Notes under the pieces: generated by a model
Databases searched by the model: none
What the model saw: the letters and a program-made list of their open reading frames with translations, nothing else
Told to the model about the DNA's origin: nothing
In this document: piece after piece, positions 6,883 to 32,666 of the stretch
How the letters are laid out: each line of letters starts with the position of its first letter
How positions within the stretch are numbered: the stretch's first letter is position 1
IMG/VR virus record: IMGVR_UViG_3300049846_000568
Coordinates: 32,001-96,000 of that record
DNA from: a virus
Reading direction: 5' to 3' (one strand)
Length of the DNA: 64,000 nt
Made by a program: the position numbers and the translations under genes

Positions 6883-7590
6883 CTAGGCTACTTGTGTGAG
6901 TGCTCCCACAAAACCTTTCAGTTCTCCGTTTTCAACTATAGGAGTCGACCTTGCTACGACTGCCTTTTCTTTGCCAGATCTATCATGCACTCTAAAGCGG
7001 TAGTAAAATCCTGTCTTGTTTGTCACCGCTGCGTGTGTGGCCTCCAATAGGCCCATGAGATCGTCCTGATTTACGAACTCCACCCACTTATTTTCCATGG
7101 CTTCGTGGTATGCGATGCCAAAGAGTTTTAGGTATGCGTCGTTAACATATACCACATCGGCCTTAGAGTCCAGCTCAAACCATGCGAGCTGTGGATCTGA
7201 GGCCGTTAGTGCATCTACGACTGCCTTGTTCTTGATTACTGCATCAAAGATGAAATCTATTTTGTCCCTGATATGCTTCATAGAGCTTTGGTAATCTGCT
7301 CTGATCTCTTCCAATTGAGTAGAACGATCTGCAAAGGACTGCTTTAGCTCTGCGGTATCACCAGCCAGCTTGTCTACGGCATCGCGCATAGATGAGCCAC
7401 CATTGTTTTGGAACTGCTGCTTGATGGGATCTAGCTGGTCACGAATTGCGTTCCTCATGACATAGCGCAAAACTACGCCAAGGGTCATCAAAGCAATGAT
7501 GATGGGCCAAGCATTAGCTAGCTCTCCACCAAAGTCCTCTAACCAGTCGGGAACTACATCCGCCGCCAAGATGAATAGATAAGGGTGCAT
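6883..7590 (-). CDS. single-TM membrane protein with coiled coil and C-terminal PAS domain
   Basis: TM WPIIIALMTLGVVL; NNGGSSMRDAVD; PAS signature YVNDAYLKLFG..W..FVNQDD..RFRV..G..ARSTPI..NG...GFVG. Confidence 0.8.
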   Translation of the reverse strand: MHPYLFILAADVVPDWLEDFGGELANAWPIIIALMTLGVVLRYVMRNAIRDQLDPIKQQFQNNGGSSMRDAVDKLAGDTAELKQSFADRSTQLEEIRADYQSSMKHIRDKIDFIFDAVIKNKAVVDALTASDPQLAWFELDSKADVVYVNDAYLKLFGIAYHEAMENKWVEFVNQDDLMGLLEATHAAVTNKTGFYYRFRVHDRSGKEKAVVARSTPIVENGELKGFVGALTQVA

Positions 7591-7828: not shown

Positions 7829-7834
7829 TAGTAA
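7829..7834 (-). promoter_or_regulatory. TTACTA candidate late promoter, 8 nt before ATG 7820
   Basis: Recurrent motif; overlaps the U-tract of the upstream terminator. Confidence 0.4.
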
Positions 7835-7867
7835 AAAGAAAAGCCCCCTAGTACAATACTAGGGGGC
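7833..7867 (-). terminator. intrinsic terminator (minus strand)
   Basis: Perfect 11-bp stem GCCCCCTAGTA/TACTAGGGGGC followed by TTTTCTTTTT. Confidence 0.9.
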
Positions 7868-7883
7868 AAGATTCGTCTTGATT

Positions 7884-8099
7884 CTACTGATTGCTAGAAC
7901 CTAGCACGTTGCTAGCTGACCTGTATACTGTATGGGCTGGGCTCGGTAGTACGTTTATGGAGCCGCTAGTAAGTGTCGGGGCGGTTAGGCCAATACTGTT
8001 TGTTGTGTATGTCCACCCCGGATTAGGGTTGGTAGCCCCAATAATCTTAGTAGTAACCGTCGTATCTTTGACGGCGGTAGTATCCAGGTCAAACCCTAG
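7884..8099 (-). CDS. putative -1 frameshift extension (71 aa, Thr/Ser-rich) of the 8096-8305 protein
   Basis: Open -1 frame with no ATG, entered at C_CCT_TTC, ending 16 nt before the terminator stem. Confidence 0.6.
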   Translation of the reverse strand, partial: LGFDLDTTAVKDTTVTTKIIGATNPNPGWTYTTNSIGLTAPTLTSGSINVLPSPAHTVYRSASNVLGSSNQ

Positions 8100-8305
8100 A
8101 AAGGGCGCACCACCAACTCTACACGATCAAGAGCATCGAGGTACTCTTCGTCAATCTGTCGCGCGGCAATCAGTAGAGCGGTATCCTCATCGGATGCCAG
8201 CACTGTCTGAACCTCAACAATAAGCTCGGAACGAGCACCGTTCTCTGCCTGCTTCTCGGTTGGGTGCAGAATTGCTGCATACTGAAATAGTCTACTCTGT
8301 GTCAT
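8096..8305 (-). CDS. small phage protein ending in VRPF (69 aa)
   Basis: GAGGAG RBS before ATG 8305 (MTQSRLFQYAAILHP...). Confidence 0.8.
   Translation of the reverse strand: MTQSRLFQYAAILHPTEKQAENGARSELIVEVQTVLASDEDTALLIAARQIDEEYLDALDRVELVVRPF
8099..8105 (-). other. -1 programmed frameshift slippery heptamer C_CCU_UUC
   Basis: X_XXY_YYZ in the correct phase, directly followed by UAG. Confidence 0.65.
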
Positions 8306-8336
8306 TTCTTCTCCTCGTTTGGTTGAGGCCAACAAT

Positions 8337-9158
8337 CTACCACATCTCCATATCTGCGTCAAATGATTCCTTGATCTTTTCACGCAATCTATTGAAGTGT
8401 TCTCTTACCGTATTGGGATGTTCGGTTACCTTACGTGCGATATCGCTAGCGCGCATACCGTCAACATAACGCCACTTAAGGAGCTGACGTTCCTGGATTG
8501 TTAGAGTATCGAATGGTGGGTATGCTGTATCCCCTAAGACCCAATACTCATCAATCTCATCAGGACCAAGAGTCTCCTCGGGGGATGGCTCGGGTGGTGC
8601 AGGGAATCCGGGGTAGAATTCCTCTATCTCATCAGACATAGCATCCTGATCCTGTAGGGGGAACGTTTTACGGCCCAACTGGTCAATGAGGAAAGTGTCC
8701 ACATTGCGCTTTAGTAGGTAGTAGAAGTAGCTGTAGATGTAGCCGCTGAACGGTACCCAGCCACCCCTTTTCGATTCGCGCCTCTTGTAGATAGAGATAC
8801 AATAAAGGAATGTCATCTGCACAGTCTGGCGAACATCGTCCTCATCGCCATAGCGCCGGGCCATACCTTGAATCCTCTGCATGATCTCGGCTACGTGCCT
8901 ACGGCCACCGTCGTTTAGCTTGTTGCGTAGGAGATGGAAACGAACAACGGGATCTTTAACAAACAACGAGATGAACTTGCGCATGTCGTAGTTGTTTACG
9001 TCGTACACGCCGTAATATAGCAATGAAACATACTTGGACAAGAACGGCTCAAACTTCTGCAGTAATTGTGCCTGGACTTTTTGATCGCCAGCCTTAGCCC
9101 TCTCCAGAAGCTCTTGAATTTCGTCCTCTGGAATCGTGTAATAGTCTTTAGTACCCAT
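8337..9158 (-). CDS. phage sigma-70 family RNA polymerase sigma factor
   Basis: LLERAKAGD...LLQKFEPF, DDVRQ...F..YIY (region 2) and LTIQERQLLKWRYVDGMRASDIA..HPNTVREH (region 4 HTH). Confidence 0.85.
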   Translation of the reverse strand: MGTKDYYTIPEDEIQELLERAKAGDQKVQAQLLQKFEPFLSKYVSLLYYGVYDVNNYDMRKFISLFVKDPVVRFHLLRNKLNDGGRRHVAEIMQRIQGMARRYGDEDDVRQTVQMTFLYCISIYKRRESKRGGWVPFSGYIYSYFYYLLKRNVDTFLIDQLGRKTFPLQDQDAMSDEIEEFYPGFPAPPEPSPEETLGPDEIDEYWVLGDTAYPPFDTLTIQERQLLKWRYVDGMRASDIARKVTEHPNTVREHFNRLREKIKESFDADMEMW

Positions 9159-30635: not shown

Positions 30636-32666
30636 TTACGCCTTTAGAGGAATCTCACATACATCATTAGCGCAGAACTTCTCACCCTCGGCGTCTAGCG
30701 CTGCGCCGTTGTATAGATCGTCCCACAGGATACCAAGTACGTTGCCGGTCTTGGTTTCCCACACATCCTCTGGAATGCGCTCGTAAGGCATCTGTGCGTA
30801 AGCCCCACCCTCTTCCAGCAGTGGAAGCATGCTGATGGACTTTAGCTGCCCATCAAAGGTGCGTAGAAGCGCACCAATCTGGTCCTTCTCATCATCCTGG
30901 AATGTGATGGTAACGGAAACCTGGTTGTCTGCCCAATAACGCTGTGCTAGAACAGCAAGGTTTGCCTTTTCCCACATAGAAACCTCGCGCTCTGTACGAA
31001 CCTGCGGACCTCTCGTTGGTAGCTCAACCACCATCGTGTTCTTGGGATCCATAACGTCGGGTTCGACGTGGTATCCAGCCATCTCAAGCGCACTCAGCAG
31101 TGGATCGTTGACTGCCAGTCTCATACGGCGAATATAAACATCTGCCGTAGGCCAGTGTACGCCTGGGGTTACCCCAAACAGTAGTGAAACGGTCCCAGAT
31201 GGCTTAACAGAGGTTGTCTTGATAGACTCGCGCACACCAAGCCAATCAGAGTATACGCGGTCATAACGTTGAACCTCATCATAGCCGCTGTTTAGCCATG
31301 TGCGTAGGTCTGTTTGACCGTGGCGCTCAGTGAATTGTGCGACACCCGAGACAGAGCAACCGATACGACGGTTACGCTGCATGATGGAGTTTGTCTCTGG
31401 CCAATGAGTCGGCAGTAGCGTAACAGACTTGGCATACAGATAAGCGACCTTGATGGTCCTCTTGTAGTCATCGAGCGTCTCGTGCTTAATGGGGAAGGTC
31501 TCAACCAGAGTGCAGCATTCAAAGGACTCTAGTGTCTGCTCACCGCATGGATTTGTGCCAGCAGCACGGTAATCGCGGTTATTCGGGGGATCAATTAGGC
31601 GACCATACTTACGGCATAGGTCCAGATAGATCAACCCTGGTTCACCATTGGCGGCGATACGCTCAGCAAGGTGGTCATAGTTGCCGCCTACCTCTGCGAA
31701 AACAGAGTTGTTTGATGTAAAGCCCCAACCATTGGGACCCATACGCTCAGGGTTGACCTCCCAATTCTTGAGATCAAGAAAGTCCTTATCATCTGCCGCG
31801 CCGAGGGCAATCTCCGCAGAACGACGTACATTACCAGCAACAACACACTTGCCGACAAGGTTCATCACATCAACAATATCTGTCGACGTAATGAAATCTC
31901 CCGCACGGCCACCCAAGATTTCACGAAGCTTTTCGTGCAGATCCTTTAACGGGGCATAGCCTGCTGCAATGCCTCCGAAACCCTTAATCGGCTCTCCAGC
32001 CTTGCGGATAAGGGAGTAGTCGAACTCGTAAGTGGGACGACCGGCAAAGAAGTAGCTCTCCAATAGAAGGGCCAGAGACTGACACCATCCCTCGCGAGAA
32101 TCGTCAATTGTGAATACCTCAACCTCATCTGTTGGCTGATGAAGCTGCAACTTACCGGAGCCCTTAGTGTCGAAACCAACGCCAACACCAAGCATCGACA
32201 TCTCCATGAGGCGCACAAATGGAAGGGTGGCCTCGTTGATGCTGCGTGACGACAGGTGCTCGGTAGAAATAAACGCGCAGTTCTGTAGGGCAGCTGAGTT
32301 CTTCTGCCCATTAACGAACTCGGTGCCCATCATCCATAGGCCACGACCAGGTGGTGTCCACTTACCAACGAACAGGCGCTCATAAGCGTCCTTTGCTGTT
32401 GCCTGCGCCTTGTTCTCGTTCCATGGCAGGCGATTACTCTTACACCAATCCTTCTGGATGGAGAACATGCCCTCAATAACGCGGCGGCATGTCTCCCACC
32501 AACGCTCTTTACTGCCGTCCTCCTTGCGTCTGCTGTACTTGGTGAGGAATGTTAGCTCCCCTAGATAGTTGCCCCCTCCAATCGGAAATCCCCAAGGCAC
32601 TTGCCTTGTCTTGTATGTGTCGATGAAGTCTTCTGGCAGATTAAAGGATAGATAATTCTCTGGCAT
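30636..32666 (-). CDS. nrdJ: class II (adenosylcobalamin-dependent) ribonucleotide reductase, monomeric RTPR-type
   Basis: PPGRGLW, LQNC, GVGVGFD, GNVRRSAE, TNPCGE, KPSGTVS, C-terminal CANDVC. Confidence 0.95.
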   Translation of the reverse strand: MPENYLSFNLPEDFIDTYKTRQVPWGFPIGGGNYLGELTFLTKYSRRKEDGSKERWWETCRRVIEGMFSIQKDWCKSNRLPWNENKAQATAKDAYERLFVGKWTPPGRGLWMMGTEFVNGQKNSAALQNCAFISTEHLSSRSINEATLPFVRLMEMSMLGVGVGFDTKGSGKLQLHQPTDEVEVFTIDDSREGWCQSLALLLESYFFAGRPTYEFDYSLIRKAGEPIKGFGGIAAGYAPLKDLHEKLREILGGRAGDFITSTDIVDVMNLVGKCVVAGNVRRSAEIALGAADDKDFLDLKNWEVNPERMGPNGWGFTSNNSVFAEVGGNYDHLAERIAANGEPGLIYLDLCRKYGRLIDPPNNRDYRAAGTNPCGEQTLESFECCTLVETFPIKHETLDDYKRTIKVAYLYAKSVTLLPTHWPETNSIMQRNRRIGCSVSGVAQFTERHGQTDLRTWLNSGYDEVQRYDRVYSDWLGVRESIKTTSVKPSGTVSLLFGVTPGVHWPTADVYIRRMRLAVNDPLLSALEMAGYHVEPDVMDPKNTMVVELPTRGPQVRTEREVSMWEKANLAVLAQRYWADNQVSVTITFQDDEKDQIGALLRTFDGQLKSISMLPLLEEGGAYAQMPYERIPEDVWETKTGNVLGILWDDLYNGAALDAEGEKFCANDVCEIPLKA

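Follow-up and report, generated by a model that had tools for sequence, protein, structure and literature searches.

The stretch of DNA analysed here (the window) comprises 64,000 nucleotides (nt), positions 32,001 to 96,000 of the 145.8-kb IMG/VR virus record IMGVR_UViG_3300049846_000568, and carries on its minus strand a small gene of 69 codons that follows a sigma factor gene and precedes an intrinsic terminator. The final codons of the small gene, GTG GTG CGC CCT TTC, are followed by a TAG stop codon, and the stop is abutted by a heptamer of the type X_XXY_YYZ, C_CCT_TTC, that is in phase with the gene. After a -1 slip on this heptamer, CCT would be replaced by CCC and TTC by TTT, so that both transfer RNAs (tRNAs) would re-pair on synonymous codons. 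The -1 frame then stays open for 71 codons; it is closed by a TGA 9 codons upstream of the junction, contains no ATG and has its earliest GTG or TTG at codon 64 of 71. An earlier note on this DNA had read these features as a hidden programmed frameshift, and its coordinates, the phase of the heptamer, the synonymous re-pairing, the open frame without ATG and the stop 16 nt ahead of the terminator were all reproduced (Table 1). We consider it very likely that a programmed -1 frameshift at this site yields a 140-residue isoform (69 + 71 residues) of the 69-residue protein, and we describe below the large phage gene family on which this reading draws.

Table 1 Features of the small gene, its -1-frame extension and their flanks in the window
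Feature	Position	Strand	Remarks
Sigma-70-like promoter match TTGACG-17-TAGATT with TG	8334..8362	-	Consensus scan; within the 3' end of the sigma factor gene, shortly before the start of the small gene
Shine-Dalgarno sequence GAGGAG, 5 nt ahead of the ATG	8311..8316	-	Direct reading of the sequence
0-frame open reading frame (ORF), 69 codons; N-domain of the 'FQYA...VRPF' family, short isoform	8099..8305	-	ATG at 8305-8303
Slippery heptamer C_CCT_TTC, in phase (X_XXY_YYZ); proposed -1 shift site	8105..8099	-	
0-frame stop TAG, abutting the heptamer	8098-8096	-	
-1-frame extension, 71 codons; Thr/Ser/Asn/Gly-rich linker and C-terminal motif	7887..8099	-	Starts with CTA, 8099-8097
Weak candidate stimulator: predicted 6-bp hairpin GCCGUC/GACGGU, 23 nt past the heptamer	8056..8075	-	Not significant alone
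C-terminal motif of the extension, AHTVYRSASNVL	7902..7937	-	Match to the family consensus
TAG stop of the -1-frame extension	7886-7884	-	
Intrinsic terminator: 11-bp GC-rich stem (7 GC pairs), 3-nt loop, T-run	7833..7867	-	Begins 16 nt past the extension stop

Within the window the junction is unusual, as none of the 64 other ORFs of at least 100 amino acids has an X_XXY_YYZ heptamer abutting its stop codon. Codon usage was scored as a log-likelihood per codon, trained on the long ORFs of the window. Of the three frames here, only that of the extension is coding-like by this measure, at +0.17; the remaining two give -0.56 and -0.52. Real genes of the window lie at 0.32 +/- 0.09 and off-frames at -0.55 +/- 0.20. 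The length of the -1 frame beyond the stops of other window genes provided no usable baseline, because adjacent genes often overlap in that frame. On the plus strand, an antisense ORF of 110 codons (7891-8223) faces the extension and the final part of the small gene; in codon usage it resembles the antisense of real genes, and it is therefore most likely an artefact. Sigma-70-like promoter matches in the region are no more numerous than expected from shuffled sequence, and the match in Table 1 is a consensus match only.

Searches of Pfam, PHROGs and NCBIfam returned no family for either half of the protein or for 56 members of its family, and we found no publication describing this gene family in the literature. 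A word-indexed protein search with the 69-residue protein gave four homologues (46-86% identity). A profile search of 1.84 billion cluster representatives gave 750 at E <= 1e-3, these clusters being defined at 50% identity, and 235 at E <= 1e-10; among the best 150 representatives, 115 end in RPF and 132 in F. Family members occur in soil, groundwater, sludge, freshwater and marine samples. When viral contigs were scanned with either half as a single protein no match was obtained, and the homologues on viral contigs were found by alignment-based scans; a scan of species genomes matched only three contigs of metagenome-assembled genomes, which pointed to no host. Comparison of the region with GenBank phages by blastn gave no match, and the sole tblastn match among cultured and GenBank phages was an unannotated 735-kb megaphage record (LR756501/LR756503). 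In this uncultured megaphage (locus L023:3001-3770, LR756501.1) the junction reads CGC CCT TTT TAA and leads into a -1 frame of 188 open codons that has an ATG at codon 51 and lacks the terminal motif described below; this frame may run on into the next gene. DNA of homologous loci was collected from assemblies, IMG/VR and metagenomes, the domain was located with a hidden Markov model, and 82 distinct loci were analysed.

Sixty-eight of the 82 loci share the arrangement of the window and form the -1 class. The stop codon directly follows the conserved Phe codon in 68 of 68, and a perfect, phased X_XXY_YYZ heptamer, either CGC CCT TTY or AGA/CGA AAT TTT, stands at the stop in 66 of 68. In the complete loci the -1 frame runs on for 46-188 codons, and the +1 frame usually meets a stop within a few codons. 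The stop codons next to the heptamer are spread evenly over TAG, TAA and TGA. Where the heptamer contains Pro, its codon is CCT in 56 of 56 loci, compared with 25% for the other Pro codons of the same genes, and the Arg codon before it is CGC in 54 of 56 loci, compared with 29% elsewhere in these genes; synonymous sites elsewhere in the genes are saturated, and the heptamer codons are almost invariant. The earlier note had proposed examining homologues for random Pro and Phe codons and closed -1 frames; neither was found in the -1 class, an outcome in favour of the frameshift reading. In a clade that has Asn in place of Pro, the site is AGA or CGA followed by AAT TTT in 12 of 12 loci (heptamer A_AAT_TTT). 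Where the following codon is AAT and not CCT, the Arg codon thus ends in A and not in C, so that X_XXY is preserved. This covariation is what tandem tRNA re-pairing would predict, and we know of no other explanation for it. When all heptamers were measured in E. coli, H_HH.U_UU.Y was among the most efficient -1 motifs and C_CC.U_UU.C was singled out as giving high-level frameshifting (Sharma et al. 2014; PMC4066793). Both heptamers of the family, C_CCU_UUC and A_AAU_UUU, fall in the H_HH.U_UU.Y class.

The phage of the window carries at least 18 tRNA genes, among them, upstream of the window, tRNA-Phe(GAA), tRNA-Pro(UGG) and tRNA-Leu(UAG) (L111:19678-19752, L112:610-686 and L112:377-451). These three serve the two heptamer codons and CUA, the first codon after a -1 slip, which may be a coincidence.

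RNA structure is enriched immediately after the shift site. In the -1 class (n = 63) the 50 nt past the heptamer have a mean z of -1.60 relative to shuffled sequences, with 41% of loci at z <= -2, compared with z -0.47 for control segments 110 nt downstream and z +0.08 upstream (Wilcoxon p 1.5e-5 and 3e-8, respectively). Where z is -1.5 or lower in the -1 class, pairing mostly begins 2-8 nt past the heptamer, most often at 5 nt. In contrast, the +1 class described below (n = 11) has no downstream folding signal (z 0.03), a difference that is expected if -1 shifting uses a downstream stimulator and +1 shifting uses slow termination at UGA. The fold of the window contains, besides the hairpin listed in Table 1, a possible long-range stem that starts 10 nt downstream of the heptamer. 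In the Asn clade (L013-L020) a hairpin lies about 5 nt past A_AAT_TTT, and its outer stem is kept through base changes (CTCCATC/GGTGGAG, CTCCATTA/TAATGGAG and CTCCTG/CAGGAG), which suggests that the changes are compensatory. RNAalifold returned no consensus for the A_AAT_TTT clade, in an alignment in which MAFFT misplaced the 3' arms; folds of the individual sequences do show the hairpins.

In 12 further loci (L040, L042, L045, L052-L055, L062, L072, L084, L099 and L103) the extension lies in the +1 frame. The site reads CGN CCC TTT TGA in 11 of these and CGT CCG TTT TAG in one, and the Arg codon may end in any of the four bases; the stop is accordingly TGA in 11 of 12, and the -1 frame closes quickly. 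The +1 extension begins with GAN right after the U of the stop codon, is open for 52-114 codons, has no start codon and ends in the same terminal motif as the -1 extensions. The site has the apparent geometry of the prfB shift site, in that a P-site tRNA-Phe could move from UUU to the overlapping UUU with UGA in the A site. At two other loci, L087 (about 1120-1360) and L100 (about 1620-1820), one extra codon separates the conserved Phe from the stop (CCC TTT CGT TGA and CCC TTT TGC TAG, respectively); a long open +1 frame there encodes a Thr-rich tail without a clear motif, and slippage may take place there on CCC_U, at some distance from the stop.

The domain, the Ser/Thr-rich tail and the motif are also found joined in frame, in at least 7 of the top 150 cluster representatives. 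Three such fusions were checked in DNA, and the heptamer is lost in each: CGG TGT TTT AGC, AGA AAC TTT GTA and GCG CCT TTT AGT, reproducible on 12, 5 and 2 contigs, respectively. The existence of these fusions indicates that both parts function as one polypeptide. The synonymous constraint on the heptamer is relaxed where a -1 slip would not be needed, that is, in the +1 class and in the fused genes. The tree of the N-terminal domain (N-domain), which is poorly resolved because the alignment is short, requires at least four origins of the +1 state and at least three of the fused state. This distribution fits one-base insertions and deletions in the C/T run that toggle the gene between -1, +1 and in-frame arrangements. 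Repeated switching of the junction among these three states shows the tailed form to be a selected product.

The extensions vary in length and sequence and are rich in Ser, Thr, Asn and Gly. They share a terminal consensus, (P)-A-T-Y-x-(S/T/N)-A-(S/A)-x-(V/L/I), which lies 7-19 residues from the C terminus, is common to -1, +1 and fused members, and is kept down to 36% identity of the N-domain; in the window its core is TVYRSASNVL. Insertions and deletions in the linker between close relatives are multiples of three, and the frame is therefore maintained. In an AlphaFold2 model of the fused homologue P0101 the N-domain has a predicted local distance difference test score (pLDDT) of about 97, and the tail has a pLDDT of about 50 and no secondary structure. 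The tail is thus probably a disordered linker with a short linear motif, in agreement with the disorder that the earlier note had suggested for this low-complexity region, and the terminal motif would serve as a docking peptide for a partner. The constraint on the heptamer codons, the shared C-terminal motif and the in-frame fusions likewise favour the two isoforms of 69 and 140 residues that had been proposed.

The N-domain of the window protein was modelled with AlphaFold2 at a pLDDT of 92.5 as a beta-alpha-beta-alpha-alpha-beta fold. Foldseek searches of PDB and BFVD with this domain gave nothing at E <= 0.001, and a sequence profile search of PDB gave chance-level matches only. VIA-align against 48,000 chains returned generic small alpha/beta matches, of which PurS was the best (Z 6.6); the others included PaaB, eL20 and, at Z 3.8, T7 Gp2. 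The ESM Atlas contained hypothetical viral clusters of the same family and a weak structural likeness to YdfE_N (template-modelling score 0.67 over 56 residues); this resemblance is a lead only. No capsid or tail-tube protein appeared in the top rows of the fold searches, and a domain of 69 residues is far too small for the HK97 fold.

The operon in the window runs DnaE, PD-(D/E)XK nuclease, endonuclease I-like protein, sigma factor, small gene and terminator. At other loci the neighbouring genes vary by phage and belong mostly to replication, recombination and transcription modules (RecA/MazG, clamp loader, helicase, topoisomerase, RecE-like, Sak4-like, GroEL, QueC and, once, terminase). A tail assembly chaperone was considered and ruled out: the small gene is not flanked by genes for the major tail protein and the tape measure, and neither its product nor 56 family members matched a Pfam or PHROG tail-chaperone family. 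The neighbours thus bear out the remark in the earlier note that the gene stands outside the position of such chaperones, after a sigma factor. Just downstream in the window (6883-7590, minus strand) is a gene for a 235-residue protein with a confident PAS domain (E 4e-10). Near one family member, precomputed Pfam matches place an intein with an HNH endonuclease in a RecA gene (L010:696-2534); in the close relative L009 the RecA is free of an intein.

For the window we propose that one start codon gives rise to two proteins. Most ribosomes would stop at the 0-frame TAG and release the 69-residue globular alpha/beta domain. A fraction would slip back by one nucleotide on C_CCU_UUC, the tRNA-Pro re-pairing from CCU to CCC and the tRNA-Phe from UUC to UUU, and these ribosomes would then read CUA (Leu) and continue through 71 codons to make the 140-residue protein. 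Sequence and comparison establish the heptamer, the conserved open alternative frame, the covarying codons, the fused genes and the enrichment of structure downstream. What we infer is the shifting of ribosomes itself, its efficiency, its timing (during translocation or while the A site is occupied by the stop codon) and what the tail does.

Several observations weigh against this proposal. Between close relatives, substitutions in the linker are not concentrated at third codon positions. Constraint on the linker sequence is therefore weak, and what is conserved in the linker region is the frame, the composition and the terminal motif only. The structure downstream of the heptamer in the window itself is weak (z -1.0 to -1.4, from folding of nested pairs). 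Two loci of the -1 class, L037 and L060, are without the first X of the heptamer. In the distant relatives L009 and L010 an ATG of the -1 ORF overlaps the stop codon, and coupled re-initiation could contribute there. The fold of the N-domain offers little help, as the searches gave generic matches only and the VIA-align matches lie under the level that the tool itself regards as meaningful.

The same two relatives bring up the possibility that the downstream ORF is a gene of its own, translated after termination-reinitiation or from a non-canonical start, with the heptamer incidental. In L009 and L010 the stop is overlapped by a TTG ATG of the -1 ORF, which was called as a gene of 53 residues by annotation software; in addition, 18 of 59 -1 extensions have an ATG, GTG or TTG within their first five codons, several of which are a TTG forced by TTT TGA at the junction. 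However, an ATG at or near the junction is found only in L009 and L010 (codon 1) and in L102 (5 codons upstream), 27 of the 59 complete -1 extensions have no ATG, GTG or TTG in their first 20 codons, and the window has none before the late codon noted above. Two genes would also leave unexplained the strict choice of CGC CCT or AGA AAT and its relaxation in +1 and fused members, and would not account for +1 extensions that open with GAN after the U of UGA without a start codon, or for natural fusions that are one polypeptide. We regard this explanation as very improbable. We would give no better chance to transcriptional slippage, in which some messenger RNAs would gain or lose a base as the polymerase crosses the C/T run and so come into frame. 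A T5 run (CCT TTT TAR) is indeed present in many members, and it is by one-base changes within it that the -1, +1 and fused states differ. The runs in the window, however, are only C3 and T3, and the slippage sites known to us need about 8-9 identical bases or more. Moreover, selection on the X before CCT and the A_AAT_TTT variant fit re-pairing of tRNAs and not a polymerase, and a hairpin 2-8 nt downstream is a hallmark of ribosomal -1 frameshifting.

The in-frame versions in other phages might alternatively mean that an ancestral gene for 140 residues was hit by a one-base insertion or deletion, or misassembled, in this contig, as a single such change would give the same picture. Yet about 80 assemblies, independent of one another and covering a range of samples and habitats, have the same split, among them close relatives from independent sequencing runs (L002; L003-L008, eight contigs). 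A random break would explain neither the exact and constant place of the stop behind the heptamer nor the selection on the heptamer codons, and we consider a broken gene or assembly error extremely improbable. A chance open frame in a non-coding 3' untranslated region ahead of the terminator would be compatible with a linker that is of low complexity, fast-evolving and devoid of third-position bias, and with the fact that the antisense ORF at 7891-8223 is open as well. Against chance stand the terminal motif, kept across distant members, the insertions and deletions in multiples of three, and codon usage that is coding-like in the extension frame only, while the antisense ORF scores like the antisense of real genes; the likelihood of such a coincidence seems to us close to negligible.

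Under the preferred -1 frameshift reading, the protein could, at low confidence, be a small hub or adaptor to which the frameshift adds a tail that tethers it to a partner through the terminal motif. A bolder proposal, which we find conceivable and rather doubtful, is that the junction acts as a three-state evolutionary dial, in which one-base insertions and deletions in the C/T run interconvert the -1, +1 and in-frame states. The dial would set the ratio of tail-less to tailed forms of a small protein that serves large environmental phages as a hub in their replication/transcription module. The motif (P)ATYxSASx(V/L/I) of the disordered tail would then be a new short linear docking motif, or a target for modification or glycosylation, for a host or phage machine, and the tail would resemble the C-terminal tails used by SSB or T4 gp33/gp55.

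Programmed frameshifts at the 3' end of a gene are known from T7 gene 10A/10B (-1) and from cps/tsh of Listeria phage PSA (+1). A further case, in the major head protein of Lactobacillus phage A2, is a 3'-terminal -1 frameshift that adds a C-terminal extension (cited in PMC10885494). As in the window, each of these systems slips at the last codons of the gene, uses one start for two isoforms with a common N-terminal body, and encodes the extension in the gap before the next signal. The proteins of T7, A2 and PSA are, however, capsid or tail structural proteins and have no sequence relationship to the small gene, whereas here a 69-residue protein stands amid replication and transcription genes and its extension is predicted to be a disordered linker with a short terminal motif.

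The tail assembly chaperone gpG/gpGT of phage lambda is made by a frameshift (Levin, Hendrix and Casjens 1993; Xu, Hendrix and Duda 2004; both as cited in PMC10885494). It resembles the present family in its conserved -1 shift near the end of a small phage gene, with a fixed ratio of the two products in lambda. The type of shift varies across the G/GT family of tail chaperones, as it does here. Unlike the chaperone gene, the small gene adjoins genes for sigma factor, DnaE, nucleases, RecA, clamp loader, helicase and topoisomerase. The tau/gamma frameshift of E. coli dnaX is a -1 slip on an X_XXY_YYZ heptamer in a replication-associated gene, as proposed here, and is stimulated by a downstream stem-loop, for which the -1 class as a whole offers a candidate counterpart; there, however, the shift truncates the product through an early stop, whereas here it would extend it, and the dnaX site A_AAA_AAG is accompanied by a Shine-Dalgarno-like element 10 nt upstream, whereas no conserved element of this kind was seen here. 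The +1 frameshift of prfB, the gene for release factor RF2, takes place at CUU_UGA (PMC12421855; PMC10885494). Only the +1 relatives resemble it: their P-site codon allows re-pairing one base further on while UGA stands in the A site (11 of 12 loci). At the CCT TTC TAG of the window, a forward move from UUC would land on UCU, where re-pairing is impossible, and the +1 frame ends after two codons. The family also differs from prfB in having no autoregulation of a release factor, no Shine-Dalgarno-like element 3 nt upstream, and a product that is a C-terminal extension and not the main body of the protein.

Mechanistically, the proposed shift is of an already known kind and corresponds to the usual bacterial type of -1 programmed frameshifting, placed at the 3' end of a phage gene. 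The novelty lies in the gene family and its non-structural context, in the natural occurrence of three states (-1, +1 and in-frame) at a single junction, and in a predicted disordered tail with a conserved motif. To our knowledge, few programmed frameshifts in bacteria and phages are well supported outside tail chaperones, capsid and tail proteins, dnaX and insertion sequences. The present family would add a large set to them, one that current gene callers and databases miss completely. For annotation, the 'gaps' of about 200 nt after these genes would be coding; for phage biology, the conserved tail motif is flagged as one whose partner is worth seeking. The family brings its own internal controls, as its -1, +1 and in-frame junctions differ in codon constraint and downstream RNA structure, and it thereby offers a natural system for what decides the direction and efficiency of slippage beside a stop codon.

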